The notes below the pieces were generated by a model. That model was not told the origin of the DNA. It searched no databases and worked only from the letters and a program-made list of their open reading frames with translations. The translations under genes were made by a program, and so were the position numbers. A stretch of 64,000 nt of DNA from Balanoglossus misakiensis (taxonomy: Eukaryota > Animalia > Hemichordata), in assembly GCA_040954595.2 (NCBI GenBank), contig JBECUI020000032.1, forward strand, positions 124,001 to 188,000. Reading direction: 5' to 3'. Positions 25,164 to 51,813 of this stretch are shown here, piece after piece (position 1 is the stretch's first letter; each line of letters opens with the position of its first letter).

Positions 25164-25233
25164 TTATACCACAGTTTCCTTAGTCTACAAAACGCATATT
25201 TCGGAAAGAACCGAGTCAGAAAAGAAGAAGTTT

Positions 25234-26086: not shown

Positions 26087-26095
26087 GAAGAACCT

Positions 26096-26985: not shown

Positions 26986-27078
26986 AGCCCTATCTTCCTC
27001 CCTCTGAAATAATGTCCCAGCTTTAAAGGCGGCCTCTCCCAAGACCGCCTGCCCTATTCTACTAGTTACTGAAATTTG

Positions 27079-28348
27079 TTATTGGGCATCAATAAGCATT
27101 TGAACAAATTCCTCCGGACTAGCCCTTCCCAAAGCCATGGCTTCAAGTGACGGACCAAACTGCTGAGTAACAGCAATATCTACCTGACTCTGGAAATGAC
27201 CAATAACAAAGGTAGCTTCACTAGCAACTCGAACAAATTCTTTTTGAAGGGGATCCGCAGCATCACCTAATTCATATTTAACAGCAAACAAGGCGCCTGC
27301 CATTTCGCTGATGTATTTGACATTTTCAGGGGCTGTGAGAAACTTCATAAAGGCTACAACAGCCTCACGTCGTCGAGGGTTGTCTGTATTGGCTGCCGCT
27401 AAGTTGGAAAGCATGAAGCCCACTTGATGACCATGGTATTGACCTACCTTAGGGGCTACAGCCAATTTAGTAGCAGCATGGGTTTCGGGTGCATCTTTTT
27501 TAATGCGGCCAATATACCAAGGGCCGTTAATGAAAGTAGCCGGTATTCTGATTCATGTAATGCCCCCCGGAAATACCGGCATCACCCCCCAAGGCATCTC
27601 GAGTGGTGTTCCCCTCAGCATAAAGCTTCTGCAGCCTCGGCTCCCTGCACATAAATAGGATTAGTCAATGGCTGTTTCCAGACTTCTGGACCGCCTAGGC
27701 TGCCCATGATGTGGCTGTACCAAAGCATGCTGGTCCAGGCATTGATTCCCCCGGTCATCTGGCTACCGGGAACAATTCCAGCGGCCTTCAGCTTTTGGGG
27801 CGACGGGCCCCCCCCCAGAATGCCTCTATTGTTTCAGGGAAGCTTTCAATTCCAGCCTTTTTGAATAGAGCGAGTTGTACCAAATCGGGGTGATTCAATC
27901 TCGAAGGGTACAGATTTGGTTCGACCATCTTTCGTACTCTCCATAACATAACTTTCTACAAACTCATCCCGCCAGGAACTCTGTAGTTCATCAGTAAAGT
28001 CCAAAAGAATATCACTTTGGTAATACTGAAAGGTAGTGGGATCGTGGGTTAAAAACAAAGATGTCAGGTGCCCTACCTGAAGACAACTGGGTATTCAATT
28101 TATCTCTGTAACCATCAACATCGGGGTTGGGTTCAATGACCACTTTGATGGCACCAGCATTCTGGCTGTTAAACTTCTCCAGAAGCACCTCCAGAGGAGC
28201 AGACTTAGAGTCCTGCCCTACCCAGAAGGTTGGGAAATTTAAAACGATCTCCCCCTCTTCCATCATTTCCACTTCACCCCCGGCAAAGGCTGGAAGAATG
28301 ACAAAAGACATAAAAAGCACTATAAAAACACGAACGTTTACTTTGCAT
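27079..28348 (-). pseudogene. Carbohydrate ABC substrate-binding protein, multiply frameshifted as assembled
   Basis: Signal peptide FAGG, LSSGRAPDIF, FMKFLT; fragments in several frames; AAGGAG before ATG 28348. Confidence 0.7.
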
Positions 28349-28486
28349 AACCTTACTCCTTTTGATTCTTATTATAATAACAGGACCTCAATCTCCTTTA
28401 AATAAATGCATTGCTTTCTTAACGACAACATCCATTACCTTAGTCACTATTTTATGCCCCAATTCTATGCCTAATAATAAAACAGC

Positions 28487-32046: not shown

Positions 32047-32380
32047 ACTATGTGTTTGTCTGTTACTCCTTCTTATTATTATCGCATCTTTGGAATAATA
32101 ACAGATTTATTTTTATCAAGTTTTTATTTATCGGCGCCTGATTTTCCTGCGGTGGAGGGAAATTATTTTGACTAGCATAGGTGGGAACCTCCAAGCAGTC
32201 TGGACCTGCACCAGGGAGAAAATGGACAATGAAGTCATTTTATTGGCATCCCGGCAGGTAAATTCCACCAAGATTAGCCTCAAATCGGCATTACAGCTAA
32301 AGGAAATTTCAAGAGTTTTCCTGTAGGGGTAATGGGGATAAGAAATGGGGCTTGGCCCGAAATCTCTGTGACCGTTCAGG

Positions 32381-32500
32381 TTAGGGGTAACGAGAGGGGT
32401 AGGCGGGAGAGCTAACTGACTGATCGGAGTTGTTCCACTCAATGGTTCCCGTGTAGCAGCCTGGGATTTGGAATTCGGCTAGGGTGACAATGCTGCCTGA
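32381..32500 (-). pseudogene. Remnant C-terminus of a GLUG lipoprotein paralog
   Basis: Translates as GSIVTLAEFQIPGCYTGTIEWN...PAY, compared with GSPVTLSQLKTPSWYTATLGWD...PAY in the intact paralog. Confidence 0.5.
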
Positions 32501-32793
32501 TAAGTGGGGTATCATGGAAAGTGAAGCTACACATAGCTGTCGTTGCCCCTTATGAAAGCTTCCAACCGACCAAAAAACCTGTGTTGTTATTGACAGGGAT
32601 ACCCACCTGATCAGTCCAGAATCCCTATTGTTCCAGCTATGGTGTTTTTTGAAGTATTTTTCTTTTTGAGATGGCTCATGGGAAAACCTTTAAGTTCTTT
32701 AGGCGGGGGGAATACGGACTCAAGGCCTGTGGATTTGGCTTGGAGTGCTCAAGCAGACTTGGGGAATTCAGGGAGCGTGACCCTAAGGAGAAT

Positions 32794-32870
32794 CCCCTGC
32801 GTCAGGGATTGGAGGGGCGCCGGAGGCGGTCCGATAGGACCGTAGCCCCGCAAAGCCCGCCCGGACGCCC
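32794..32870 (+). repeat. GC-rich palindromic REP/MITE-like element, copy 1
   Basis: CCCCTGCGTCAGGGATTGGAGGGGCGCCG...AAAGCCCGCCCGGACGCCC, near-identical to 48850-48927. Confidence 0.85.
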
Positions 32871-32954
32871 AGAAAAGAAGAAGTTACTGCATTTTTGATA
32901 CTGCGATATTTCTGTAGAAGAAACATCCCGCTTTTACATGTAAGTGAGGAGAAG

Positions 32955-33050
32955 TTAGTTGGGTTGGTGGGCTGGCCCAGAACTTCTATGCTTGCTCCGA
33001 TTTGAAGTGTATGGGGGTGCTAGGAAGGAGTGGCGTTGATAAGACCAGAA
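32955..33050 (-). pseudogene. Remnant 3' end of a paralog of the 29578-32046 gene
   Basis: Nucleotide similarity to about 29580-29680 (GGGCTG.CCC.G.AC.TCT.TGCTTG...TATGGGGGTG.TAGG). Confidence 0.5.
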
Positions 33051-33200
33051 AGTTGCCAATCGGTGGTGGAGCAATTTAGCTTACCAAATCCTCCAGAAAA
33101 AGGCCCAGAAAAGAAGAAGTTACTGTATTAAGGGCAAGGAATCTGCTTTATCAAGCAGAATCCACTTCTGCCGGAGTAACGTGCAAGCTAAGAAATGAAC

Positions 33201-33776
33201 TTAGGGAAGGGAGCTGCTGAGCTGATCGGGAAAGTCTGGGACCTGAGGGGCGTAGGGGATTTCCCTCTACCCGATGTCGATGAGACAAGAGTTTATGGGC
33301 CAAGCAACACAATAACCCACAAAAAACTTCCTTAATGCTGTGGTTCTTACCATCAAAGCTCCCAGCATATCCGCCGCTTTGGTAGGTTCCAGCTTCGTCA
33401 GGAGTTCCACGAACCAGGGGGGGGGTAAGTTCTCATTATTGCTAAGGTCGTCGCTATCGTAGGGGGCATCCATAAACCTGTTGTTGTCGGCGTCAGCAAA
33501 GTTGAGATCCAACCTTCACTCATAGTTCCAGCTAGGACTAGAGTTTTAAAAGGCTTCCCTGGCTATGGCCACAACCGATTTGCCCTGAATGTCAGAGGGA
33601 ATTGTCAGTAAGGTGATCCCTTGGCTTGCCAGGCCTGTTATGGTGATTCCCCCGCCTTCGTTCTGTTAGGTGATTGTTCCGAATGTATGGGTAACGGTGA
33701 GATTGCTGCAGGAAGTCATCATATAAAGGGCCAAGAGCACAATGCCGACTGCTATGAGAAAAGCTTTCCTACGCAT
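33201..33776 (-). pseudogene. Internally deleted LRR/GLUG lipoprotein pseudogene
   Basis: AAGGAG plus ATG 33776: MRRKAFLIAVGIVLLALYMMTSC...ITITGL...TIPSDIQGKSVVAIAREAF*NSSPSWNYE*RLDLNFADAD; in-frame stops and large deletions. Confidence 0.75.
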
Positions 33777-33986
33777 GCTTTAAAACTCCTTTATCCCCTC
33801 TTGAAGGTAATCAAAAAACTCAAGGAAAATGATGGAATAAGGCAAACAGTCACTCGATTTAGGGCCCTATGGGTCCAGAAGCCCCCAAAGACCCTCCCAG
33901 GTGGGCCCGGGAATGAGGAACTCCAGGGGAAATGGTGATTGAAGATAAAAACAGCCCCCTTCCGTAAAGACGGGGTAGCTTGATGG

Positions 33987-36384
33987 CTAGGGGGTTGGCA
34001 GGGGGGTGTCGGGCTGGCCGGGAAAGTTGTTGATGTGGGGGTGGTAGGCGGGACTGCCGTCCACCCGGCCTTCAATGACCCAATCGTTGGCGGACCAGCC
34101 TAGCCTGCCAGTGTTGGTCCCGGTGTACCAGCTTGGGGTTTTTAGTTGATCCAGGCTGACGGTGCTGCCTAGGGTGCTGGGTGTAGGGTGGGCATTGCCG
34201 TCAGGGGCCGTGATACTCTGATTCGCATAGCGGTAGCTGTTCGTTATGGTTCCTGGGGCACGAATAGTTCCAACCAAACCACCCACCTGGGTGGTGTCTC
34301 TCTGACCCAAGACATTCCCTGTAGCATAGCTATTCGTTAGGGTACCTCCATCGAGGAATCCTATCAAACCACCTACCTGAGAACCCTGCCCCGAGACATC
34401 TCCAGTAGCATAGCTGCCTGTTATGTGAGCAGTGAGCTGTCCAACCAAACCACCCACGTACTTATCCTGCCCCGAGACATCTCCAGTGGCATAGCTGCCT
34501 GTTATGCTACTAGCTATACTATTGTAGCTTCCTACCAAACCACCCACGCCGCTCCCTTGCCCCGAGACATCTCCGGTGGAATAGCTATCCCTTATGCTAC
34601 CGCCGCTGGACCCAGCCAAGCCTCCCACGTGACTCCCCTGCCCCGAGACATCTCCGGTGGAATAGCTATCCCTTATGCTACCGCCGCTGGACCCAGCCAA
34701 GCCTCCCACGTTATTTCCCTGTCCCGAGACATCTCCGGTGGAATAGCTATCCCTTATGCTGCCGCTGCTGGACCCAGTCAAGCCACCCACGCTGCTGCTA
34801 CCCGTGACAGAAGCCGCAGCATAGCTACCGCTTATGGTAGCCCAGGAGCGCCCGACCAAAGCACCCACATCGCGGTACCCCAAAACAGAGCCCCCAATCA
34901 GTCCCAGATCCTTTATCTCACTTCCACCAGTAACCGTGGCCCCGAAAAAACCAACTCCATCGGCTTCAGGAGTTGTGACGGTCATTCCCTCGATACTGTG
35001 GTTTTTACCATCAAAGTTCCCAGCATATCCACCGCTTAGGTAGTTGCCATCGTCGTCATAAGTCCAGGGCTAAGAGGGGTCCAGTTTCCGTTGTCGGCAT
35101 CATCGTCGCTGTCGAAGGGGTCATCCCTGATCCCATCGTTGTCGGCGTCAGCGAAGTTGAGGTCCATGCTTAGCTCGTAGTTCCAGTTATCGGGGTAGTT
35201 TTCCGTATCCACTCCGATTTTGGCCAGTTCACTCAGGCGGTGGATGTACTGCTTGCCATCGGCGGTGGGGATGAGGGGGGTGGTGTAACGGTATTCAGCG
35301 CTGCCGTCGCTGAGCTGGGCATGCAGGTAGTAGGCGGTCTCGGTTACTGACCCCGCTGAGTTCCACTGTCTGAGGGCCGGGGCTGCCTGTAAAGGAAACC
35401 TTCTTGACCATGATGTTTAAAGCCTGGTCGGTGAAGGCTTGGAGTTCTGCTTCTAGTCCTAGGGGAACGCCAACTTCACCATGATTTTTCCAGAACGGGG
35501 ACGGCATCGGTAATGACGATGCCATGGGGAGAGTAAGGATTAGGAAGCGTTATCCAATCCGTGGAGGCCTCCGGGAGACCTGATTCCCTTTGGCCCGCAG
35601 GCGGTAGGAGGTACCGTCGGTCAGGCCAGTCAAGCTTATCTCCTGGGATGTTGTTGCCGTCGGTTCGGAACAGCTGTTGCGGTAGCTTCACTGCTAAAGT
35701 CAGCTTCGGTGTGAGCTTCAACGGTAATGCCTAACGCCGGGTAGGGGCTTGAGGGTGATGATGAGGCTTTGGTAAGCCTGTCTTATGTTTTCAATGATAG
35801 CGGGGTCCAAGGCCCGTTCCGGACCGCCGAAGCCGCTCCAGAGGCCTTCAGTGTAGCCTGTTGTTTCTCCGATGGGGTAAAGGAGGGTGATCCCGGTCAA
35901 GGGGGCAGGAAAGGCCTCGGCGGGGCTGCCTATAAAGCTGGGGGCCTTGGGGGCCAGGATGGTCAGCTTGTTGAGAGCCGTTCCGGCGAAGGCCAGATTG
36001 CCGATGGAGGTGATACCGTTACCTATCTGCACTTCGCTCAAGGAGGCAGCTGAGTTGAAGGCCTCGTCTCCTATAGTTGTGACGCTGTTGGGAATATTTA
36101 TGCTGGTGAGGGTAGAGTTTTTAAAGGCTGCCTCGGCTATGGCCGTAACGGGCTTGTTGTGAATAAAAGAGGGTATGCTGAGGTCGGTGATGTCTCGTCT
36201 TGCCAGACCAGTTATAGTGATTTCCTGCCTTCGTCCTGGTAGGTAAGTGCGTCGAAACTAAGGGGGGCAGTAGGGTTGCTGCAGGAAGTTATCAGGTAGA
36301 ACACAAAAAGGAAAAAACCAACTTTGGCGGCTAGGGTTCCTCTATGTTGTCTTACGCGGGGAGAGGGTGAGTATCTAAATTCAT
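33987..36384 (-). pseudogene. Array copy A: LRR/Fn3-like/GLUG lipoprotein with 8 GLUG modules, frameshifted as assembled
   Basis: ATG 36384 after AAGGAG, lipobox ITSC; fragments 35718-36041, 35476-35721, 35295-35525, 33987-34985 are homologous to 45846-48746. Confidence 0.8.
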
Positions 36385-36416
36385 ATGTTGGATCTCCTTA
36401 CAAACTTGATTGGCCT

Positions 36417-36445
36417 ATCATATAGTAGGACTACGTTCTTGTCAA
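36417..36445 (-). promoter_or_regulatory. Sigma70-like promoter of copy A
   Basis: TTGACA-N17-TATGAT, with the -10 box about 32 bp upstream of the ATG. Confidence 0.7.
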
Positions 36446-36629
36446 AGCTTTGCCATAGCCTAAAAGCTTTGCCATAGGTAAAAGACTTTTGATTGAGCAG
36501 TGATATTGAATAATGACACTACGCTTCTAAAGTTTATTGCGTTTTAGAGGGAAAGCCAAGTTTTTTGGAATTATTCTCTGTTTTTTGGGGAAGACTTCGG
36601 GGTTGGGGCGGCGATGGAGAGGTCCAGGG

Positions 36630-37145
36630 GGGCTGGTTTGGGGAGATGAGCCTTCCAAGGCCCGCACGGACTGCGGGCCTTGGAGGGCGGGATTGCTGGT
36701 AGAGGCATCATCCCGCATTTGCGGGGGTGATGGCTAGGGGGGTGGTAGGGGGGGTGTCGGGCTGGCCGGGGAAGTTGGTGATGTGGGGCTGGTTGGGGGA
36801 GATTAGCCTTCCAAGGCCCGCACGGACTGCGGGGCTTGGAGGGCGGGATTGCTGGTAGAGGCATCATCCCCGCATTTGCGGGGGTGATGGCTAGGGGGTT
36901 GGCAGGGGGGTGTCGGGCTGGCCGGGGAAGTTGGTGATGTGGGGTGGTAGGCGGGGGTCGGGCTGGCCGAGGAAGTTGGTGATGTGGGGCTGGTTGGGGG
37001 AGATTAGCCTTCCAAGGCCCGCACGGACTGCGGGGATTGGAGGGCGGGATTGCTGGTAGAGGCATCATCCCCGCATTTGCGGGGGTGATGGCTAGGGGGT
37101 TGGTAGGGGGGTGTCGGGCTGGCCGGGGAAGTTGGTGATGTGGGG
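36630..37145. repeat. Triplicated ~155-bp unit (gene 3' end plus double hairpin)
   Basis: Three copies of GCCTTCCAAGGCCCGCACGGACTGCGGG...GGCATCATCCC(C)GCATTTGCGGGGGTGATGGCTAGGGG...GGAAGTTGGTGATGTGGGG, plus a ~40-bp partial copy. Confidence 0.85.
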
Positions 37146-39681
37146 GTGGTAGGCGGGACTGCCGTCCACCCGGCCTTCAATGACCCAATCGTTGACGGAC
37201 CAGCCTAGCTTGCCAATTTCGGTTCCGGTGTACCAGCTTGGGGTTTTTAGTTGATCCAGGCTGACGGTGCTGCCTAGGGTGCTGGGGTAGGGTGGCATTG
37301 CCGTCAGGGGCCGTGATACTCTGATTCGCATAGCGGTAGCTGTTCGTTATGGTGCCAGAAAAGGATGCTCCGACCAAACCACCCACCTGGGTGGAGGCAC
37401 TCTTCCCCACGACATTCCCTGTAGCATAGCTATTCGTTAGGGTACCTCCATCGAGGAATCCTATCAAACCACCCACACTAAAGGACCCCGAGACATCTCC
37501 AGTAGCATAGCTGCCTGTTATGCTAGCAGAGCTGTGCCCGGCCAAACCACCCACAGCATCGTTCCCCGAGACATCTCCAGTAGCATAGCTGCCTGTTATG
37601 CTAGCAGAGCTGTGCCCGGCCAAGCCGCCCACGTTGCTGCTACCCGTGACAGAACCCGTGGCATAGCTGCCTGTTATGCTAGCAGTGCTGAGCCCAGCCA
37701 AGCCGCCGACATACCCCTGACCCGAGACAACCCCAGTGGCATAGCTCTCTGTTATGACCCCACTATTTTCTCCAACCAAACCACCCACGTGACGCCCCTG
37801 CCCCGAGACATCTCCAGTGGCATAGCTAGCCCTTATGCTACCACCGCTGTACCCAGCCAAGCCTCCCACGTAACTCCCCTGCCCCGAGACATCTCCGGTG
37901 GAATAGCTATCCCTTATGCTGCCGCTGCTGGACCCAGCCAAGCCACCCACGTTGCTGCTACCCGTGACAGAACCCGTGGTATAGCTGCCTGTTATGGTTC
38001 CACCCGATACTCCAGCCAAACCACCAACGCTTCTGCTACCCGTGACAGAACCCGTAGCATAGCTGCCTATAATCTCTCCCTCGTTATACCCAACCAAACT
38101 ACCTACGTTAGAATTACCCGAGAAAGAGCCACCCAGCAGTGCCAGATCCTTAATTTGACCTCCAGCAAGCATAAAATTAAAAAACCGACTCTATTAGCTA
38201 AAGGTGTCGTGACGGTCATTCCCTCGATACTGTGGTTTTTACCATCAAAGTTCCCAGCATATCCACCGCTTAGGTAGTTTCCATCGTCGTCATAAGTTCC
38301 AGGGCTAAGAGGGGTCCAGTTTCCGTTGTCGGCATCATCGTCGCTGTCGAAGGGGTCATCCCTGATCCCGTCGTTGTCAGCGTCAGCGAAGTTGAGGTCC
38401 ATGCTTAGCTCGTAGTTCCAGTTATCGGGGTAGTTTTCCGTATCCACTCCGATTTTGGCCAGTTCGCTTAGGCGGTGGATGTACTGCTTGCCGTCGGCGG
38501 TGGGGATGAGGGGAGTGAATAGCGGTATTCAGCGCTGCCGTCGCTGAGCTGGGCACGCAGGTAGTAGAGCCTTTCATTGCTGACCCCGCTGAGTTCCACT
38601 GTCTGAGGGCCGGGGCTGCCTGTAAAGGAAACCTTCTTGACCATGATGCTTAAAGCCTGGTCGGTGAAGGCCTGGAGTTCTGCTTCTAGTCCTAGGGGAG
38701 CGTCAACTTCAACCATGATTTTTCCAGAACGGGGAACGGCATCGGTAATGGCGATGCCATAGGGAGAGTAAGGATTAGGAAGCGTTATCCAATCCGTGAA
38801 GGCCTCCGGGGAGACCTGGCTCCCTTTGGCCCGCAGGTGGTAGGAGGTACCGTCGGTCAGGCCAGTCAGGCTTATCTCCTGGGATGTTGTTGCCGTCGGT
38901 TCGGAAACTGCTGTTGCGGTGGTAGAGCCAGCTTCGGTGAGAGCTTCTACGGTAATGCTAACGCCGGGTAGGGGCTTGAGGGTGATAATGAGGCTTTGGT
39001 AAGCCTGTCTTATGTTTTCAATGACAGAGGGGTCCAAGGCCCGTTCTGGACCGCCAAAGCCGCTCCAGGGGGCTTCAGTGTAGCCTGTTGTTTCTCCGAT
39101 GGGGTAAAGGAGGGTGATCCCGGTCAAGGGGGCGGGAAAGGCCTCGGGAGGACTGCCTATAAAGCTGGGGGCCCTGGGGGCCAGGACGGTGAGTTTATTA
39201 AGGGCCGTTCCGGCGAAGGCCAGATTGCCGATGGAGGTGATACCGTTACCTATCTGCACTTCGCTCAAGGAGGCAGCTGAGTTGAAGGCCTCGTCTCCTA
39301 TAGTCCGTGACGCTGTTGGGAATATTTATGCTGGTGAGGGTAGAGTTTTTAAAGGCTGCCTCGGCTATGGGCCCGTAACGGGCTTGTTTATAAATGAAAG
39401 AGGTATGCTGAGGTCGGTGCTCTCTCGTCTTGCCAGACCAGTTATAGTGATTCCCTGCCTTCGTCCTGGTAGGTAAGTGCGTCGAAACTAGGGGGGCGGT
39501 GAGGTTGCTGCAGGAAGTTATCAGGTAGAAAACGAAAGGGAAAGACCAACTTTAGTGGCTAGGGTTTTTCTATGCTGTCTTACGCGGGGAAGTGAGTGAG
39601 TGAGTGAGTGAGTGAGTGAGTGAGTGAGTGAGTGAGTGAGTGAGTGAGTGAGTGAGTGAGTGAGTTGGTAAATAAATTCAT
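37092..39681 (-). pseudogene. Array copy B: LRR/Fn3-like/GLUG lipoprotein with 10 modules and (ACTC)18, out of frame as assembled
   Basis: ATG 39681 after AAGGAG; fragments 38468-39268, 38103-38447, 37177-38172, 37092-37331. Confidence 0.8.
39594..39665 (+). repeat. (GAGT)18 tract, read as (ACTC)18 on the coding strand of copy B
   Basis: 72 nt of perfect repeat beginning 16 nt after the first base of the ATG. Confidence 0.95.
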
Positions 39682-39713
39682 ATGCTGGATCTCCTTACAA
39701 ATTTGATTGGTCT

Positions 39714-39742
39714 ACCCTATCGTAGTTATTCTTTTTTGTCAA
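39714..39742 (-). promoter_or_regulatory. Sigma70-like promoter of copy B
   Basis: TTGACA-N17-TAGGGT. Confidence 0.55.
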
Positions 39743-40013
39743 GTCTTTGCCATAGGTAAAAGACTTTTTGATTGAGCAGTGATCTTGAATAAGGACACTA
39801 CGCTTCTAAAGCTTATGACGTTTTAGAGGGAATGCCAAGTTTTTTGGAATTATTTTCTGTTTTTGGGAAGACTTCAGGGTTGGGGTGGCGAGGGAGGGGT
39901 CCAGAGGGGGCTGGTTTGGGGAGATGAGCCTTACAAAGGCCCGCACGGACTGCGGGGCTTGGAGGGCAGGATTGCTGATAGAGGCATCATCCCCGCATTT
40001 GCGGGGGTGATGG

Positions 40014-42640
40014 CTAGGGGGTTGGCAGGGGGGTGTCGGGCTGGCCGGGGAAGTTGGTGATGTGGGGGTGGTAGGGGGGGCTGCCGTTCACCCGGCCTTC
40101 AATAATCCACTTGTCGGCGGCCCAGCCTAAGTTGCCGGTGTCGGTGTACCAGCTTGGGGTTTTTAGTTGATCCAGGCTGACGGTGCTGCCAGAGGTGTTG
40201 GGTGTAGCCTGGGCATTGCCGTCAGGGTCTGTGAAACTCTGATTCACATAGCGGTAGCTGTTGGTTATGGTGCCTGTATCAATTAGTCCTATCAAACCAC
40301 CCAGGTCGGCCCCTTGCCCCGAGACATTCCCAGTGGCATAGCTGTTTGTTATGCTACCAAAGTTGTGATGACCGACCAAACCACCCACGATGTTCCCTTG
40401 CCCCGAGAGATCCCCAGTGGCATAGCTGTTCTCTATGCTGCCTGTGTTGTATCCCACCAAGCCGCCCAACGCATTGCTGACCCCGAAACAGTACCGGTGG
40501 CATAGCTGTTTGTTATGGAACTAGCATTGCCTCCAAACCAAACCACCCACTTGATCGTCCCCCGAGACATCTCCAGTGGCATAGCTGTCGACATCTCCAG
40601 TGGCATAGCTGTCTGTTATGGTAGCACGGGCTCTGTCCAACCAAACCACCCACGCTGTCCTCCTGACCCGAGACATCTCCAGTGGCATAGCTGCCTGTTA
40701 TGGCAAAACCAATGTTGTTTCCAACCAAACCACCCACACCACCGAGCCCCGAAACAGTACCAGTGGCATAGCTGTCTGTTATGGGACCAATTTTGAGTCC
40801 GACCAAAACCACCTACACTGCTACTCTGCCCTGATACATTCCCGGTGGCATAGCTGCTCGTTATGCTGCCCATTTGCCCGCTGGATCCAACCAAACCACC
40901 CACGTAGTCCCCCTGACCCGAGACATCTCCAGTGGTATAGCTAGCCCTTATACTGCCGTTGCTGTACCCAGCCAAGCCTCCCACATACTCCTGCCCCGTG
41001 ACAGAAGCCGTAGCATAGCTGCCTATAATCTCTCCCTCGTTATCCCCAACCAAACTACCTACGAAAGAATTACCCGAGAAAGAGCCACCCAGCAGTTCCA
41101 GATCCTTAATTTGACCTCCAGCAACCGTGGTCCCCAAAAAACCGACTCTATTAGCTAAAGGTGTCGTGACGGTCATTCCCTCGATACTGTGGTTTTTACC
41201 ATCAAAACTCCCAGCATATCCACCGCTTAGGTAGTTGCCATCGTCGTCATAAGTTCCAGGGCTAAGAGGGGTCCAGTTTCCGTTGTCGGCATTGTTGTCG
41301 CTGTCAAAGGGGTCATTCTTAACCCCGTCGTTGTCGGCGTCGGCGAAGTGGAGGTTGCTTTTTAATTCGTAGTTCCAGTTATCGGGGTAGTTTTCACTAT
41401 CCACGCCGATTTTGGCCAGTTCGCTTAGGCGGTGGATGTACTGCTTGCCGTCGGCGGTGGGGATGAGGGGAGTGGAATAGCGGTATTCAGCGCTGCCGTC
41501 GCTGAGCAGGGCACGCAGGTAGTAGGGCCTTTCATTGCTGACCCCGCTGAGTTCCACTGTCTGAGGGCCGGGGCTGCCTGTAAAGGAAACCTTCTTGACC
41601 ATGATGCTTAAAGCCTGGTCGGTGAAGGCCTGGAGTTCTGCTTCTAGTCCTAGGGGAACGCCAACTTCAACCGTGATTTTTCCAGAACGGGGAACGGCAT
41701 CGGTAATGGCGATGCCATGGGGAGAGTAAGGATTAGGAAGCGTTATCCAATCCGTGGAGGCCTCCGGGGAGACCTGATTCCTTTGGCCCGCAGGCGGTAG
41801 GAGGTACCGTCGGTCAGGCCAGTCAGGCTTATCTCCTGGGATGTTGTTGCCGTCGGTTCGGAAACTGCTGTTGCGGTGGTAGATCCAGCTTCGGTGCGAG
41901 CTTCTACGGTAATGCTAACGCCGGGTAGGGGCTTGAGGGTGATGATGAGGCTTTGGTAAGCCTGTCTTATGTTTTCAATGACAGAGGGGTCCAAGGCCCG
42001 TTCCGGACCGCCGAAGCCGCTCCAGGGGGCTTCAGTGTAGCCTGTTGTTTCTCCGATGGGGTAAAGGAGGGTGATCCCGGTCAAGGAGGCGGGAAAGGCC
42101 TCGGCGGGGCTGCCTGTAAAGCTGGGGGCCCTGGGGGCCAGGACGGTGAGTTTATTAAGGGCCGTTCCGGCGAAGGCCAGATTGCCGATGGAGGTGTACC
42201 GTTACCTATCTGCACTTCGCTCAAGGAGGCAGCTGAGTTGAAGGCCTCGTCTCCTATAGTCGTGACGCTGTTGGGAATATTTATGCTGGTGAGAATGGAG
42301 TTTTTAAAGGCTGCCTCGGCTATGGCCGTAACGGGCTTGTTATAAATGAAAGAGGGTATGCTGAGGTCGGTGCTGTCTCGTCTTGCCAGACCAGTTATAG
42401 TGATTTCCCTGCCTTCGTCCTGGTAGGTAAGTGCGTCGAAACTAGGGGGGGCGGTGAGGTTGCTGCAGGAAGTTATCAGGTAGAAAACGAAAAGGGAAAG
42501 ACCAACTTTAGTGGCTAGGGTTTTTCTATGCTGTCTTACGCGGGGAAGTGGGAAGTGAGTGAGTGAGTGAGTGAGTGAGTGAGTGAGTGAGTGAGTGAGT
42601 GAGTGAGTGAGTGAGTGAGTGAGTTGGTAAATAAATTCAT
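40014..42640 (-). pseudogene. Array copy C: LRR/Fn3-like/GLUG lipoprotein with about 10 modules and (ACTC)17, out of frame as assembled
   Basis: ATG 42640 after AAGGAG; fragments 41743-42084, 40616-41602, 40513-40812, 40014-40469. Confidence 0.8.
42557..42624 (+). repeat. (GAGT)17 tract in copy C with an adjacent 7-bp GGGAAGT duplication
   Basis: 68 nt of perfect repeat, counted directly. Confidence 0.95.
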
Positions 42641-42672
42641 ATGCTGGATCTCCTTACAAATTTGATTGGTTT

Positions 42673-42701
42673 ATCCTATCGTAGTTATTCTTTTTTGTCA
42701 A
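42673..42701 (-). promoter_or_regulatory. Sigma70-like promoter of copy C
   Basis: TTGACA-N17-TAGGAT. Confidence 0.6.
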
Positions 42702-42973
42702 GTCTTTGCCATAGGTAAAAGACTTTTTGATTGAGCAGTGATATTGAATAATGACACTACGCTTCTAAAGCTTATTTGCTTTTTAGAGGGAAAACCAAAT
42801 TTTTTGGAATTATTTTCTGTTTTGGGGAAGACTTCGGGGTTGGGGTGGCGATGGAGAGGTCCAGGGGGGGGCAGGTTGGGGGAGATGAGCCTTACAAGGC
42901 CCGCACGGACTGCGGGGCTTGGAGGGCGGGATTGCTGGTAGAGGCATCATCCCCGCATTTGCGGGGGTGATGG

Positions 42974-45514
42974 CTAGGGGGTTGGTAGGGGGGTGTCGGG
43001 CTGGCCGGGGAAGTTGGTGATGTGGGGGTGGTAGGGGGGGCTGCCGTTCACCCGGCCTTCAATAATCCACTTGTCGGCGGCCCAGCCTAAGTTGCCGGTG
43101 TCGGTGTACCAGCTTGGGGTTTTTAGTTGATCCAGGCTGACGGTGCTGCCAGAGGTGTTGGGTGTAGCCTGGGCATTGCCGTCAGGGTCTGTGAAACTCT
43201 GATTCACATAGCGGTAGCTGTTGGTTATGGTGCCTGTATCAATTAGTCCTATCAAACCACCCAGGTCGGCCCCTTGCCCCGAGACATTCCCAGTGGCATA
43301 GCTGTTTGTTATGCTACCGAAGTTGTGATTACCGACCAAACCACCCACGATGTTCCCTTGCCCCGAGAGATCCCCAGTGGCATAGCTGTTCTCTATGCTG
43401 CCTGAGTTGACTCCCGCCAAGCCGCCCAACTCGTCGCTGACCCCCGAAACAGTACCGGTGGCATAGCTAGCCCTTATGCTGCTGGTGGTGTCTCCAACCA
43501 AACCACCCACTTGTGTCCCCTGACCCGAGACATCCCCAGTGGCATAGCTACCGCTTATGGTAGCCCAGGAGCGCCCCGACCAAACCACCCACACTACCGT
43601 CCCCCGAGACATCTCCAGTGGCATAGCTGTCTGTTATGGGAGCAAGGGTACGTCCGACCAAACCACCTACAAGGTCTCTCTGCCCTGAGACATTCCCGGT
43701 GGCATAGCTGCTCGTTATGCTGCCCCTTCTCCAGCTGAGTCCAACCAAACCACCCACGAAGACCCCTACATTGTTGCCCCCATGACCTGATACATCTCCA
43801 GTGGCATAGCTAGCCCTTATACTGCCGTTGCTGTACCCAGCCAAGCCTCCCACATACTCCTGCCCCGTGGCAGAAGCCGTAGAATAGCTGCCTATAATCT
43901 CTCCCTTGTTATCCCCAACCAAACTACCTACGTTAGAATTACCCGAGAAAGAGCCACCCAGCAGTGCCAGATCCTTAATTTGACCTCCAGCAACCATCAA
44001 ATTAAAAAAAACCGACTCTATTAGCTAAAGGTGTCGTGACGGTCATTCCCTCGATACTGTGGTTTTTACCATCAAAACTCCCACCATACCCACCGCTTAG
44101 GTAGTTTCCATCGTCGTCATAAATTCCAGGCTAAGAGGGGTCCAGTTTCCGTTGTCGGCATCATCGTCGCTGTCGTAATGGTCGTTCATTACCCCATCGT
44201 TGTCAGCGTCGGCGAAGTTGAGTCCCATGCTTAGCTCGTAGTTCCAGTTATCGGGGTAGTTTTCACTATCCACTCCGATTTTGGCCAGTTCACTCAGGCG
44301 GTGGATGTACTGCTTGCCGTCGGCGGTGGGGATGAGGGGAGTGGAATAGCGGTATTCAGCGCTGCCGTCGCTGAGCTGGGCACGCAGGTAGTAGGCGGTC
44401 TCGTTACTGACCCCGCTGAGTTCCACTGTCTGAGGGGCGAGGCTGCCTGTAAAGGAAACCTGCTTGACCATGATGTTTAAAGCCTGGTCGGTGAAGGCCT
44501 GGAGTTCTGCTTCTAGTCCTAGGGAATGCCAACTTCAACCATGATTTTTCCAGAACGGGGAACGGCATCGGTAATGACGATGCCATGGGGAGAGTAAGGA
44601 TTAGGAAGCGTTATCCAATCCGTGGAGGCCTCCGGGGAGACCTGATTCCCTTTGGCCCGCAGGCGGTAGGAGGTACCGTCGGTCAGGCCAGTCAGGCTTA
44701 TCTCCTGGGATGTTGTTGCCGTCGGTTCGGAAACTGCTGTTGCGGTGGTAGATCCAGCTTCGGTGTGAGCTTCTACGGTAATGCTAACGCCGGGTAGGGG
44801 CTTGAGGTGATGATGAGGCTTTGGTAAGCCTGTCTTATATTTTCAATGACAGAGGGGTCCAAGGCCCGTTCTGGACCGCCGAAGCCGCTCCAGGGGGCTT
44901 CAGTGTAGCCTGTTGTTTCTCCCGATGGGGTAAAGGAGGGTGATCCCGGTCAAGGGGGCAGGAAAGGCCTCGGCGGGGCTGCCTATAAAGCTGGGGGCCC
45001 TTGGGGCCAGGATGCTTAGCTTGTTGAGGGCCGTTCCGGCGAAGGCCAGATTGCCGATGGAGGTGATACCGTTACCTATCTGCACTTCGCTCAAGGAGGC
45101 AGCTGAGTTGAAGGCCTCGTCTCCTATAGTCGTGACGCTGTTGGGAATATTTATGCTGGTGAGAATGGAGTTTTTAAAGGCTGCCTCGGCTATGGCCGTA
45201 ACGGGCTTGTTATAAATGAAAGAGGGTATGCTGAGGTCGGTGCTGTCTTGTCTTGCCAGACCAGTTATAGTGATTTCCCTGCCTTCGTCCTGGTAGGTAA
45301 GTGCGTCGAAACTAGGGGGGCGGTGAGGTTGCTGCAGGAAGTTATCAGGTAGAAAACGAAAAGGGAAAGACCAACTTTAGTGGCTAGGGTTTTTCTATGT
45401 TGTCTTACGCGGGGAAGTGAGTGAGTGAGTGAGTGAGTGAGTGAGTGAGTGAGTGAGTGAGTGAGTGAGTGAGTGAGTGAGTGAGTGAGTGAGTGAGTTG
45501 ATAGATAAATTCAT
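42974..45514 (-). pseudogene. Array copy D: LRR/Fn3-like/GLUG lipoprotein with about 9 modules and (ACTC)20, out of frame as assembled
   Basis: ATG 45514 after AAGGAG; fragments 44900-45094, 44097-44471, 43548-44000, 42974-43624. Confidence 0.8.
45419..45498 (+). repeat. (GAGT)20 tract in copy D
   Basis: 80 nt of perfect repeat, counted directly. Confidence 0.95.
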
Positions 45515-45546
45515 ATGCTGGATCTCCTTACAAATTTGATTGGTCT

Positions 45547-45574
45547 ATCCTATCGTAGGTATTCTTTTTGTCAA
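45547..45574 (-). promoter_or_regulatory. Sigma70-like promoter of copy D
   Basis: TTGACA-N16-TAGGAT. Confidence 0.55.
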
Positions 45575-45760
45575 GTCTTTTCTATAGGTAAAAGACTTTT
45601 TGATTGAGCAGTGATATTGAATAATGACACTACGCTTCTAAAGCTTATTGCGTTTTAGAGGGAATGCCAAGTTTTTTGGAATTATTTTCTGTTTTTGGGA
45701 AAGACTTCGGGGTTGGGGTGGCGATGGAGAGGTCCAGGGGGGGCAGGTTGGGGGAGATGA

Positions 45761-45844
45761 GCCTTCCAAGGCCCGCACGGACTGCGGGGCTTGGAGGGCG
45801 GGATTGCTGGTAGAGGCATCATTCCCGCATTTGCGGGGGTGATG
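45761..45844 (-). terminator. Double GC-rich hairpin after copy E, also present after B, C and D
   Basis: GCCTTCCAAGGCCCGCA-CGGAC-TGCGGGGCTTGGAGGGC and CATCATTCCCGCA-TT-TGCGGGGGTGATG directly after the stop; no U-tract, so function is uncertain. Confidence 0.45.
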
Positions 45845-45845
45845 G

Positions 45846-48746
45846 CTAGGGGGTTGGGAGGGGGGTGTTGGGTTGGTTGGGGAAGTTGGTGATGTGGGGG
45901 TGGTAGGGGGGGGTACCGTTCACCCGGCCTTCAATAATCCACTTGTCGGCGGCCCAGCCTAAGTTGCCGGTGTCGGTGTACCAGCTTGGGGTTTTTAGTT
46001 GATCCAGGCTGACGGTGCTGCCAGAGGTGTTGGGGTTGGCTTTGGCATTGCCGTCAGGGTCTGTGATACTCTGATTCGCATAGCGGTAGCTGTTGGTTAT
46101 GGTGCCTGTATTAATTAGTCCTATCAAACCACCCAGGTCGGCCCCTTGCCCCGAGACATTCCCAGTGGCATAGCTGTTTGTTATGCTACCAAAGTTGTGA
46201 TTACCGACCAAACCACCCACGATGTTCCCTTGCCCCGAGACATTCCCAGTGGCATAGCTGTTTGTTATGCTACCGCCGTTGTTCCCAGCCAAGCCTCCCA
46301 CATACCACCCCCACCCCGAGACATCCCCTGTGGCATAGCTGCCTGTTATGCTACCGCCGCCGTTGTCCCCAGCCAAGCCTCCCACGAGACCCCCCTGAGT
46401 CGAGGTGACAACCCCAGTGGAATAGCTATCATTTATGCTGCCGCTGCTGGACCCAGCCAAGCCTCCCACGAGACCCCCCTGAGTCGAGGTGACAACCCCA
46501 GTGGAATAGCTCTCTGTTATGACCCCACTATTGTATCCAACCAAACCACCCACTTTATTCCACTGACCTGAGACATCTCCGGTGGAATAGCTATCACTTA
46601 TGCTGCCGCTGCTGGACCCAGCCAAGCCACCAACCTCATCCCACTGACCCGTGACAGAACCCGTAGCATAGCTGCCTGTTATGGTTCCACCCGATACTCC
46701 AGCCAAGCCACCAACGCTGCTGTTACCCCTAACATCTCCGGTGGAATAGCTATCACTTATGCTGCCGCTGCTGGACCCAGCCAAGCCACCAACCTCATCC
46801 CCCTGACCCGTGACAGAACCCGTAGCATAGCTGCCTGTTATGGTTCCACCCGATACTCCAGCCAAGCCACCAACGCTGCTGTTACCCCTGACATCTCCGG
46901 TGGAATGGCTATCACTTATGCTGCCGCTGCTGGACCCAGCCAAGCCACCAACCTCATCCCCCTGACCCGTGACAGAACCCGTAGCATAGCTGCCTGTTAT
47001 GGTTCCACCCGATACTCCAGCCAAGCCACCAACGCTGCTGCTACCCCTGACATCTCCGGTGGAATGGCTATCACTTATGCTGCCGCTGCTGGACCCAGCC
47101 AAGCCACCAACCTCATCCCCCTGACCCGTGACATCTCCGGTGGAATAGCTATCACTTATGCTGCCGCTGCTGGACCCAGCCAAGCCACCAACCTCATCCC
47201 CCTGACCCGTGACAGAACCCGTAGCATAGCTGCCTATGATCTCTCCCTCGTTATACCCAATCAAGCTACCTACGTTAGAATTCCCCGAGAAAGAGCCACC
47301 CAGCAGTTCCAGATCCTTAATTTGACCTCCAGCAAGCATAAAATTAAAAAAACCGACTCTATTAGCTGAAGCTGTCGTGATGGTCAGTCCCTCGATACTG
47401 TGGTTTTTACCATCAAAGTTCCCAGCATATCCACCGCTTAGGTAGTTTCCATCGTCGTCATAAGTTCCAGGGCTAAGAGGGGTCCAGTTTCCGTTGTCGG
47501 CATCATCGTCGCTGTCAAAGGGGTCATCCCTGATCCCGTCGTTGTTCGCGTCAGCGAAGTTGAGGTCCATGCTTAGCTCGTAGTTCCAGTTATCGGGGTA
47601 GTTTTCACTATCCACTCCGATTTTGGCCAGTTCACTCAGGCGGTGGATGTACTGCTTGCCATTGGCGGTGGGAATAAGGGGAGTGGAATAGCGGTATTCA
47701 GCGCTGCCGTCGCTGAGTAGGGCCCGCAGGTAGTAGGTGATTTCATTGCTGAGTCCGTCTATTTCCACCGTTGGAGAGTCGGGGTTAATTGTAAAGAAGA
47801 CTTCTTTGACCATCATGCTAAAATCCTTGTCGCTGAATGCCTGGAGTTTTGCTTCCATTTCTTCTGAGGCTCTTACTTCAGCAATAATTTTCCCTGTACG
47901 GGGGGTAGCATCGGCAATAAAGATACCGTGGGGTTTGTAGGGAGTGAGAAGTGGCACCCAGGCGCTGGGGGTGCCTGGAAAATTTTGGTATCCTCTGACC
48001 CGCAGATGGTAGAAGGTCCCTTCGCTAAGACCAGTCAGGGTTATCTCCTGGGTTGTCGTTGCCCTTGGGTTTGATTTTGCCGTTGCAACGGCATCGCCGG
48101 TGAAGTCGGCTTCTGTGTGGGCTTCTACGGTCAAGGTAGCGCCGTATAGGGGCTTGAGGCTGATGATGAGCTTTTGAAAACCCGTAGTTATTTTTTCAAT
48201 GACACTGGATCCCAGGAGAGGGATATGGCGACCGAAGTACCTCCAGGGGGCTCTGTCGTAACCTGTGCTCCCCAAAGGGTAAACCAGGGAGATTTCTCTT
48301 AGGGGAATGGGGAGGATTCCCTCAAGGGGAAAGCCTATGATCCTGGGGGCCTCTGGGGCCAGGATGGTGAGTGTGTTTAGGGATGTACCGGTAAAGGCTA
48401 GACTGCCTATCGATTTAATGCCGTTTCCTATCTGTACTTCGCTTAGGGAGGCAGATAAGTAAAAGGCTTCGTTTCCTATGGTAGTTACGCTGTCGGGAAT
48501 GCTTACCCTGCTAAGGGCAGTACCTCTAAAGGCTGCCCTGGCTATGGCGGTAACAGGCTTGTTGTGAATGAACGAAGGGATTGTTATGACGGTGCTGTTT
48601 TGGTTTACCAGACCAGTTATGGTGATTGTGCTACCTTCGTCCCGATGGGTGAACTCTCCGAGGTTGGGAGGGGCAGAGGGGTCGGCACAGGAAATTAGAA
48701 GGTAACAGAAAAAGTGTAAAATTCCGAAAACTTTGGGACACTTCAT
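45846..48746 (-). CDS. Array copy E: intact 966-aa surface lipoprotein with BspA-type LRR, Fn3-like domains and 15 GLUG-type modules
   Basis: Lipobox LISC; IPDSVTTIGNEAF; LTGLSEGTFYHLRV; FDGKNHSIEGL; (S/A)TG.V.G..VGGL(A/V)G repeats; no ACTC tract. Confidence 0.9.
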   Translation of the reverse strand: MKCPKVFGILHFFCYLLISCADPSAPPNLGEFTHRDEGSTITITGLVNQNSTVITIPSFIHNKPVTAIARAAFRGTALSRVSIPDSVTTIGNEAFYLSASLSEVQIGNGIKSIGSLAFTGTSLNTLTILAPEAPRIIGFPLEGILPIPLREISLVYPLGSTGYDRAPWRYFGRHIPLLGSSVIEKITTGFQKLIISLKPLYGATLTVEAHTEADFTGDAVATAKSNPRATTTQEITLTGLSEGTFYHLRVRGYQNFPGTPSAWVPLLTPYKPHGIFIADATPRTGKIIAEVRASEEMEAKLQAFSDKDFSMMVKEVFFTINPDSPTVEIDGLSNEITYYLRALLSDGSAEYRYSTPLIPTANGKQYIHRLSELAKIGVDSENYPDNWNYELSMDLNFADANNDGIRDDPFDSDDDADNGNWTPLSPGTYDDDGNYLSGGYAGNFDGKNHSIEGLTITTASANRVGFFNFMLAGGQIKDLELLGGSFSGNSNVGSLIGYNEGEIIGSYATGSVTGQGDEVGGLAGSSSGSISDSYSTGDVTGQGDEVGGLAGSSSGSISDSHSTGDVRGSSSVGGLAGVSGGTITGSYATGSVTGQGDEVGGLAGSSSGSISDSHSTGDVRGNSSVGGLAGVSGGTITGSYATGSVTGQGDEVGGLAGSSSGSISDSYSTGDVRGNSSVGGLAGVSGGTITGSYATGSVTGQWDEVGGLAGSSSGSISDSYSTGDVSGQWNKVGGLVGYNSGVITESYSTGVVTSTQGGLVGGLAGSSSGSINDSYSTGVVTSTQGGLVGGLAGDNGGGSITGSYATGDVSGWGWYVGGLAGNNGGSITNSYATGNVSGQGNIVGGLVGNHNFGSITNSYATGNVSGQGADLGGLIGLINTGTITNSYRYANQSITDPDGNAKANPNTSGSTVSLDQLKTPSWYTDTGNLGWAADKWIIEGRVNGTPPYHPHITNFPNQPNTPLPTP

Positions 48747-48849
48747 ACTTCATACTTTATCACTTGAGATGAAATAAAACCAGAGTAATGGCAATGTCTG
48801 CTCTTAACTCATAAGGAGGATTGGGAGATTTTAGGGGAACGGAAGAGGG

Positions 48850-48927
48850 CCCCTGCGTCAGGGATTGGAGGGGCGCCGAAGGCGGTCCGGCAGGACCGTT
48901 AGCCCCGGAAAGCCCGCCCGGACGCCC
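48850..48927 (+). repeat. GC-rich palindromic REP/MITE-like element, copy 2
   Basis: Direct repeat of 32794-32870 with few differences. Confidence 0.85.
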
Positions 48928-48977
48928 TAAAAAAGCTTGCCTATCGTGGGGTAAGAAGGAGCGTTCAGCTCTGAGGG

Positions 48978-50222
48978 CTAAAATCCCCTTTCTCTTTGCA
49001 TTTCCCGTTCTCGACGGGAATTTTTTACTTTTTCCATTTTCCGGTAGTAGTCGGAAGATTTTTTAATTTCCAGAACGTCGGAGGCATAGAGCCAGTTGCC
49101 TGTTATCTGAAGGTCCTTGTTTCCCATTAGTTTGGCTAGGGAGACTTTGCCTTCGGCTTTGGAAAGGCCTACCATGTTGATCAATTCGTTGGGCCCAAAG
49201 CCAAAGGTGTGGGCTTGGCGGGATGAAAGGTCTACCCGAGATTTCTCCAGTTCCAGGACAAGACGGTCATAAAGACGACCGACGGGATCTTCTATAAGGG
49301 CGTTGCCAAGCTGCCTGTTAAGAATCCATACCCTTTCGGCTAGCAAGACGGTCAGCCTGGAGATGACTTTGGGTTGATCCACGACCATGGCTTTGAAGTT
49401 GCTCCGACTTACGGCCATCATTACCGATTCTTCGTGGGCAATGGCTGAGGCACTGCGAGGTTTATTTTCTAAGAGGGCCATTTCTCCGAAGATGTCTCCA
49501 GGTTTGAGCAGGGCTAGCAGGACTTCGTTGTTGTCGACAATTTTGGTAATCCTAATGCTGCCTTTCTGGATAATATAGAGTTCTGGACCGGATTCTCCTT
49601 CGGAAAAAATCATGGTGTTCTTGGGGTAGGTGCGGATAAAGTCTGAAGAATTGGGGATGTCAAGGTTGGCTACGGTGGCATAGGGTTTGATTTTTTTCAT
49701 TCTCTCCTTGGCTACGGCAAGGTTGGTGCCAGTGGGGTTGGCTTGGCAGTATTTGTAATAGGCGTAGTAAGCTTGGTTAAATTGATTCTGCCGGGCATAG
49801 TACTCAGCGACGTTGAAGAGATGACGTTCGTCTATTTCTGCCGAACTTTTAAAGGTTATGCGAGTGAGGGCTTCGTCTAAACTTCTTACCAGCCGAGAAA
49901 AGTTGTTGATCATTTTCATGGCCACAGGAGTGTTGCGCTCGATTAACAAAGGATACTGGTGTGGGCGAACAGCAATAAAGGTGCAGTCTACTAAAGCCAG
50001 TGCAGTGTCAATGTGACTATGATTGGACATGGTGGAGACTACGCCAAAAAAATCTCCAGGCTTAAGAAGGTTGGAATCCCTTTCTTCGGGAATTTCCAAT
50101 TCCTTCTCAATCCTTACCCTGCCTGAGCGAATAATATAGAACTGGGTCGCATGTTTCCCCTCAATGGTAATATACGCTCCCTTATTGTATTTCACCAAAT
50201 CCAGTTGGAGGGGGTTCGGCAT
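48978..50222 (-). CDS. Tandem cyclic-nucleotide-binding domain protein (Crp-like, central TPR)
   Basis: Two cNMP domains (LKPGDFFG; LKPGDIFGEMALLENKPRSASA) and a TPR-like linker. Confidence 0.88.
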   Translation of the reverse strand: MPNPLQLDLVKYNKGAYITIEGKHATQFYIIRSGRVRIEKELEIPEERDSNLLKPGDFFGVVSTMSNHSHIDTALALVDCTFIAVRPHQYPLLIERNTPVAMKMINNFSRLVRSLDEALTRITFKSSAEIDERHLFNVAEYYARQNQFNQAYYAYYKYCQANPTGTNLAVAKERMKKIKPYATVANLDIPNSSDFIRTYPKNTMIFSEGESGPELYIIQKGSIRITKIVDNNEVLLALLKPGDIFGEMALLENKPRSASAIAHEESVMMAVSRSNFKAMVVDQPKVISRLTVLLAERVWILNRQLGNALIEDPVGRLYDRLVLELEKSRVDLSSRQAHTFGFGPNELINMVGLSKAEGKVSLAKLMGNKDLQITGNWLYASDVLEIKKSSDYYRKMEKVKNSRREREMQRERGF

Positions 50223-51633: not shown

Positions 51634-51720
51634 AATACTTCCTAGGAATACTCGACCATCCTATCTCATAGAATGGGAAGTGGCAAGCTTCTCCTAAAGG
51701 GAAGTTAACAAAAATGCCTT

Positions 51721-51748
51721 CTTTCCTCTTTCCTCTTTCCTCTTTCCA
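51721..51748 (+). repeat. Heptamer tandem repeat (CTTTCCT)x4, last unit imperfect, in the glyA-lon intergenic region
   Basis: ctttcct ctttcct ctttcct ctttcca. Confidence 0.7.
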
Positions 51749-51813
51749 TCTTAAATTATAATTAAGAGCACCTTGCTAAAAGGTATGTTATACATTTAAT
51801 TAATGGAGGTTAA

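Follow-up and report, generated by a model that had tools for sequence, protein, structure and literature searches.

Candidate (ACTC)n translational switches in a tandem array of lipoprotein genes from an uncultured spirochaete

Introduction

Translational switching by tetranucleotide repeats at the 5' end of a gene is textbook knowledge in Haemophilus, Neisseria and Moraxella, and has mostly been discussed for small-genome, host-adapted pathogens. The DNA considered here is a stretch of 64,000 nucleotides (nt), referred to as the window (contig JBECUI020000032.1 of assembly GCA_040954595.2, positions 124,001 to 188,000, forward strand), which is filed in GenBank under the hemichordate Balanoglossus misakiensis and whose sequence appears to derive from a metagenome. 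It holds an array of paralogous lipoprotein genes, three of which (copies B, C and D) carry long (ACTC)n tracts between the start codon and the signal peptide. An earlier note on this DNA had proposed that these tracts drive phase variation of translation; the proposal is weighed below together with the state of the genes downstream of the tracts.

The contingency loci of Haemophilus influenzae, e.g. lic1A with (CAAT)n, hgp with (CCAA)n and mod with (AGTC)n, bear about 15-40 perfect units at their 5' ends, and slipped-strand mispairing turns their translation ON or OFF. The array in the window shares with them the perfect 5' tetranucleotide tracts and, if the proposal holds, translational switching. 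It differs in lineage, unit and gene family, and the length differences observed in its tracts are between paralogues, whereas those of H. influenzae vary among isolates and colonies. The opa genes of Neisseria have (CTCTT)n in the region coding for the leader peptide, and these paralogous surface proteins are switched independently, resulting in combinatorial expression. Both opa and the array combine a paralogous family of (here predicted) surface proteins with a coding repeat at the signal peptide. The opa repeat is a pentamer inside the hydrophobic core of the leader and its loci are scattered, whereas the repeat described here is a tetramer ahead of the charged n-region and its loci are in tandem.

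The closest described case that was found is autA and autB of Neisseria meningitidis. There, AAGC repeats just after the start codon, in the DNA of the signal sequence, switch these genes (PMC5118866). Changes in unit number set the frame, and most isolates are OFF, some of them with additional disruptions downstream (PMC5118866). The likeness lies in a tetranucleotide tract between the start codon and the end of the signal sequence that sets the frame. The unit there is AAGC and the product an autotransporter, whereas here the unit is ACTC and the predicted product a lipoprotein with an LRR_5 domain and GLUG repeats. Furthermore, each of three adjacent paralogues has a tract here, in what appears to be an uncultured member of Spirochaetia. 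Among spirochaetes, the tpr genes of Treponema pallidum have poly-G tracts upstream and show repeat-mediated phase variation (PMC7864442). The tpr genes resemble the array in that repeats would vary candidate surface proteins of a spirochaete, and differ in that their tracts are promoter homopolymers acting on transcription, whereas a tetranucleotide within the reading frame would act on translation. The literature search found no description linking ACTC or GAGT tracts to phase variation, nor one of tetranucleotide phase variation in spirochaetes.

Perfect ACTC tracts in the reading path

The window contains 46 matches to the motif (ACTC)4, which form three clusters and lie without exception on the minus strand, against 0.00 expected from 100 shuffles. 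Tandem Repeats Finder detects three arrays of period 4, each with 100% matches (39591-39665, 42554-42624 and 45416-45498). Exact counting gives (ACTC)18 in copy B (39594-39665), (ACTC)17 in copy C (42557-42624) and (ACTC)20 in copy D (45419-45498; these and all other features of the array are on the minus strand), i.e. perfect tracts of 68-80 nt whose 4-nt unit is not a multiple of 3. The program also places a 7-nt duplication at 42543-42557, 3' of the tract of copy C. The exact counts agree with those of the earlier note, which had given n = 18, 17 and 20 with a 7-bp duplication in copy C.

The 5' modules of the three copies have the same order, as had been described for the part from AAGGAG to the lipobox region: a promoter-like site, AAGGAG, 9 nt, ATG (at 39681 in B, 42640 in C and 45514 in D), 13 nt, (ACTC)n, ACTT and CCC CGC GTA AGA. 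The distance from ATG to tract is 16 nt in all three. The promoter-like site reads TTGACA, 17 nt, TAGGAT in copy C (42673-42701) and recurs as the same module in copy D (45547-45574), the spacing being 16 or 17 nt; copy B keeps TTGACA with a poorer second hexamer. On the other side of the tract, copy C encodes a putative lipoprotein signal peptide, PRVRQHRKTLATKVGLSLFVFYLITSC, with lipobox I-T-S-C (42465-42545). Its counterparts are found at 45334-45414 in copy D and at 39510-39589 in copy B, where the module is 1 nt short and the 1-bp deletion reported in the earlier note is present (T4 to T3 at 39537). The signal peptide of C and D comprises a charged n-region, PRVRQHRKTLATK, followed by a hydrophobic stretch, VGLSLFVFYL, and the lipobox. 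I-T-S-C fits the pattern [LVI][ASTVI][GAS]C for substrates of signal peptidase II.

In all three copies the tract sits within the sole possible reading path between the ATG and the signal peptide. It is free of stops in every sense frame, and a scan of the 28 codons from CCC to beyond the lipobox Cys finds no ATG, GTG or TTG in B, C or D; the earlier note had made both points, and they hold. The sequence from the ATG to the CCC-CGC codons measures 92 nt in B, 95 nt in C and 100 nt in D. None of these is divisible by 3. Each copy is thus out of frame as assembled, with the ATG frame ending a few codons past the tract, at TAA in B and C and at TAG in D. The arithmetic by which all three had been called OFF with an early stop is therefore correct for the assembled sequence, as is the rule that B and D are in frame when n mod 3 = 1. 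Copy C, given its 7-nt duplication, is in frame when n mod 3 = 0.

The lipoprotein gene array

The array has at least six members, in the order F, a truncated remnant, A, B, C, D and E. The tract-bearing genes extend from their ATG codons to stops at 37092 (copy B, 37092-39681), 40014 (copy C, 40014-42640) and 42974 (copy D, 42974-45514), and in copy C the signal peptide and the C7 run that follows it share one frame. Copies E (45846-48746) and F (29578-32046) are intact paralogues of 966 amino acids (aa; protein P0001) and 822 aa without a tract, and both begin with short lipoprotein signal peptides; the 5' end of E is different, with lipobox LLISC. The intact members consist of a BspA-type leucine-rich repeat (LRR) domain, LRR_5, an FN3-like part (a weak fn3 match in F) and numerous GLUG motifs. 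The Pfam families LRR_5 (PF13306) and Glug (PF07581) are above the gathering score in both, with Glug at 169 bits and LRR_5 at 48 bits in E, and 64 and 47 bits in F. Copies B-D are assigned the same LRR_5, FN3-like and GLUG architecture by way of E, to which their tblastn pieces are 41-81% identical (55-81% for the longest unique ones).

Pairwise identity among B, C and D is 92.3-95.0% over 1.7 kb from the start of the signal peptide, whereas E and F have a DNA identity to B-D of just 75-77%. Copy A (33987-36384) is 89-90% identical to B-D and has a promoter-like site (TTGACA, 17 nt, TATGAT; 36417-36445), ribosome-binding site (RBS), ATG and signal peptide as in those copies, with a single ACTC unit. 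Its 23 nt before CCC-CGC place it out of frame too; the earlier note had missed this fourth copy of the 5' module. Synonymous divergence (dS) among A-D is 0.08-0.20. Tract length differs among near-identical paralogues, which have 17, 18 and 20 units as against one in A. Because a copy with 89-90% identity has one unit, the tract has either grown or, in A, shrunk during the evolution of the array, and the comparison of these copies indicates that it has changed in length within the life of the array.

Proposed switch

The reading favoured here, with moderate confidence, is that the ACTC tracts are slipped-strand translational on/off switches. Slipped-strand mispairing at replication would add or remove whole 4-nt units, and each change of a unit would move the frame of the ATG onto or off that of the signal peptide. 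The ON lengths would be n = 16, 19 or 22 for copies B and D and n = 15, 18 or 21 for copy C. In the OFF state a peptide of about 30-35 residues would be made before a stop is met. In the ON state the precursor would carry a 32-residue extension before the charged n-region which, as read from copy D minus one ACTC unit, would comprise six residues, six Ser-Leu-Thr-His units and Ser-Leu. The product would be a surface lipoprotein of the BspA-type LRR, FN3-like and GLUG architecture. With three such switches acting independently, a population could mix up to eight expression states. We infer the instability of the tract, the switching and the export of the extended precursor from the sequence.

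The anatomy on which the earlier note based its claim of phase variation stands: the tract is long and perfect, its unit is 4 nt, it lies in the reading path, and its length differs among paralogues. The retention of TTGACA-16/17-TAGGAT, AAGGAG and ATG across the copies supports the same reading. What the claim had left out is that the bodies of the genes are broken as assembled.

Further frameshifts in copies A-D

Beyond the tract, each of copies A-D has from 4 to at least 8 additional frameshifts of 1-2 nt as assembled, which, apart from the 1-bp deletion in the signal-peptide region of copy B, are absent from the earlier note. Copy B has at least eight, at 39537, 39496, 39452, 39372, 39306, 38517 and 38176 and one near 37340-37180; copy C has four, at 42196, 41781, about 40802 and about 40626; copy D has at least six, at 45320, 44923, 44807, 44524 and 44130 and one between 43633 and 43551; copy A has at least eight. 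The first 1.7 kb of A-D contain 21 copy-specific indels of 1-2 nt (8 in A, 6 in B, 2 in C and 5 in D) plus one complex site in a T run. Breaks in the GLUG part, counted in B, C and D, add one, two and one, respectively.

The signal peptide of copy B is itself broken, at 39537. The poly-C run directly 3' of the lipobox (39496, 42451 and 45320) is C7 and in-frame in copy C, and C6 and out-of-frame in B and D, so that the frame of B and D is lost 9 codons past the Cys; copy C stays open for some 115 codons, until the break at 42196. The length difference in the poly-C run may reflect either systematic miscalling of the homopolymer or a second switch, a homopolymeric one. The claim that the genes turn ON when B or C gains one unit, or when D loses one, does not survive for the sequence as assembled. 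All three break again downstream, and with 4 to at least 8 additional frameshifts per copy the one-unit switch is untrue of this sequence.

Consensus error or real breaks

The extra frameshifts are, somewhat more probably than otherwise, consensus errors of a low-depth metagenome assembly at most sites, and the genes of copies B-D are probably intact in the cell. Runs of at least two identical bases hold 19 of the 21 indels, and deletions make up 16 of the 21; C7, the longest such run, is one base short in two of the three tract-bearing copies. The substitutions point in the same direction. No in-frame stop occurs in the 503 codons shared by the four copies, where neutrality would predict 4.0 given the 157 lineage-specific substitutions (P of none = 0.014) and about 5.3 given all 223 variable sites (P of none = 0.004). 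The ratio of nonsynonymous to synonymous substitution rates (dN/dS) is 0.40-0.54 among A-D, compared to 0.36-0.44 against the intact copy E. These patterns indicate that the bodies of A-D evolved under constraint.

Contigs of runs X1 and X2 bear on the broken sites. Run X1, with 1.9 million contigs, has a depth of 7-9 over single-copy parts of the window. An X2 contig of 123 nt aligns to copy B over 38145-38265 without a mismatch and carries an additional base at 38178, in the broken T run of this copy, whereas the nearest paralogue shows 4 mismatches to the same contig across 38145-38265. The extra base at 38178 is carried by all contig depth in both X1 and X2. An X1 contig of 260 nt with a depth of 63 runs without gaps over 42298-42545 and shows the region that is broken in B and D in its unbroken form, that of copy C.

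Breakage of the same kind is seen outside the array. The cluster of ABC transporter genes at 24299-28368 is fragmented; its ABC-3 permease gene is on the plus strand, while the minus strand carries the genes for a solute-binding protein and two BPD_transp_1 permeases. The two minus-strand permease genes are single-copy (25246-25985 and 26099-27018) and have one frameshift each, at 25428-25554 and about 26570 respectively, and no stop; their orthologues in genome G003 are whole, with 287 and 309 aa and 60-79% identity. The breakage of this cluster can be put down either to local consensus error or to recent decay.

As the extra frameshifts are probably consensus errors, the exact unit counts and the all-OFF state of the three copies are insecure.

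Weighing of the alternatives

Instead of switched genes, the array could be a decaying one, in which A-D are true pseudogenes, with ACTC tracts that are either neutral microsatellites or left over from a switch that once worked. We regard this as unlikely, while giving it appreciable weight. It would account for the 4 to at least 8 frameshifts per copy besides the tract, for copy A being out of frame though it has no tract, and for the restriction of breaks to particular loci with whole genes flanking them; decay has also evidently occurred nearby, since the degenerate family member at about 33154-33779 is confirmed by an X1 contig with 0 differences. Decay fits less well, however, with the lack of nonsense codons (0 against about 4 expected), with the dN/dS values among A-D and with the retention of the promoter-like site, RBS and ATG. 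The indels are also excessive relative to substitutions, e.g. 5 in copy D against 21 lineage-specific substitutions, they fall almost entirely in homopolymer runs, and the contig specific to copy B has the unbroken version at 38178. Consensus error could reach the tracts as well. If their lengths were wrong or averaged over a population, the genes might be in frame and constitutive, each product bearing an invariant N-terminal (Ser-Leu-Thr-His)n extension, and there would be no switching. Many small indel discrepancies in the window are typical of consensus error, a count of 17-20 units could be off, and the tract is open in all frames. Yet the consensus errors of the window are homopolymer changes of 1-2 nt rather than of 4-nt units, n differs among the three copies by non-multiples of 3, and perfect tetranucleotide tracts of such length are known for high instability; constitutive expression is accordingly judged improbable. 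Still less credible is the view that the array is a store of silent cassettes that feed an expressed paralogue by gene conversion, in the style of vls, tprK or pilS, with the tracts incidental. The tandem arrangement, the 89-95% identity and the variable GLUG-repeat regions would suit such a store, as would X1 contigs that join paralogues one or two array units apart (e.g. with skips of 2954, 2972 and 5706 nt). Silent cassettes, however, lack the promoter-like site, RBS, ATG and signal peptide that every copy here retains, the intact E and F share just 75-77% DNA identity with B-D, and joints between paralogues are expected from a k=31 graph at shared words or may come from other strains.

Several points nevertheless weigh against phase-variable genes with a faulty consensus. 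As assembled, a full-length protein is impossible from any copy at any tract length. The frameshifts occur only within 24.3-28.5 kb and 32-45.8 kb, with no break seen in long frames elsewhere in the window, and such clustering would be equally expected from decay locus by locus. X1 contigs match about 3.2 kb of unique window sequence, including 32804-34010 with the remnant, with 1 difference, and because of this agreement in unique stretches the assembly is not error-prone everywhere. The contigs with corrected bases may stem from other copies or strains, since the X1 depth at 38178 is 56 as compared to about 8 for single-copy sequence. Length differences are known among paralogues only, the k=31 contigs of X1 and X2 ending at the tracts, and finding all three copies OFF is uninformative, with a chance of 8 in 27. 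Among the 38 genomes of the order of genome G002, none has (ACTC)7, and no close homologue of the lipoprotein family was found in the genome contigs, the metagenome contigs or the protein collection.

Relatives and host lineage

The Lon protease of the window has at most 75% identity to any of its best 80 loci in the genome contig collection. The best matches all belong to metagenome-assembled genomes (MAGs) of uncultured Spirochaetia or Spirochaetaceae, the nearest being environmental MAGs. On these matches, the host lineage is assigned to an uncultured member of Spirochaetia.

Relatives of the lipoproteins are distant. P0001 gave 28 pattern matches in the genome contig collection, none of which was confirmed, and 32 matches in the metagenome contig collection, with one distant relative at 32% identity over the GLUG part. 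It was matched in three of five genomes of relatives in the repeat domains only, these five holding just distant GLUG or LRR proteins. The protein collection yielded 351 matches at E <= 1e-10; among the best 120, nearly all cover the LRR part only (5-18% of the query), and one GLUG protein of 968 aa covers 27%. An exact 26-nt pattern spanning the RBS and ATG had 0 matches in the metagenome contig collection. A search with the frame of tract plus signal peptide returned 205 matches; the six inspected were unrelated low-complexity (T/S-H-S-L)n proteins with no match to the signal peptide.

Other features of the array and the window

The truncated remnant of the lipoprotein family (about 33154-33779) has lipobox MMTSC, a short LRR start and an Asp-rich middle, and carries an in-frame stop and frameshifts. 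It is taken to be truly degenerate because the X1 contig spans 32804-34010 with 0 differences. At the start of copy E, a 7-nt repeat of 2.6 copies (48740-48757) contains the ATG. Of the two ATGs here, which are 7 nt apart and differ in frame, the first leads into a frame of 40 aa and the second into the 966-aa frame. Every copy is followed 3' of its stop by a GC-rich module with two strong hairpins (36629-37157; e.g. 39800-40016), which partly repeats the Pro/Thr-rich C-terminal coding end. After copy B the module occurs as a tandem duplication (periods of 156 and 201 nt), and the hairpins after the stop of copy C have a fold z of -2.5 and lack a U-tract. A scan for intrinsic terminators downstream of the genes found no convincing one.

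X1 contig depth is 30-134 over the array (32000-49000) and 7-9 in the unique flanks, the contig with the 5' coding module of copy C having a depth of 63. The high depth and the joints between paralogues suggest more copies in the genome or co-occurring strains, or may be graph artefacts. The only other non-trivial repeat in the window with a unit of 2-8 nt and at least 4 copies is (TCTTTCC), with 4.6 copies at 51720-51752, between the divergent SHMT gene (minus strand) and lon gene (plus strand).

Implications

What would be new here relative to known switches is the ACTC unit, the family of lipoproteins with BspA-type LRR and GLUG repeats, and the uncultured Spirochaetia lineage; the kind of switch is itself known. 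As a caution, frameshift-rich stretches of low-depth metagenome assemblies can mimic as well as mask ON and OFF states. If the tracts are found to vary in reads, the array would be a clear case of an unreported unit acting on LRR_5 and GLUG lipoproteins in an uncultured member of Spirochaetia whose nearest relatives by Lon protease are environmental MAGs, and tract-length histograms in long-read metagenomes would offer a simple marker for bet-hedging in natural communities.

A wider reading is offered tentatively, as we hold it to be possible though doubtful: the window may represent an array of at least three contingency loci, by contig depth perhaps several more, in a spirochaete related to free-living aquatic lineages, each gated by its own (ACTC)n and possibly also by C6/C7. 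If true, combinatorial phase variation of the surface in the style of pathogens would also exist outside host-adapted bacteria, where it might serve, e.g., against phages or grazers.

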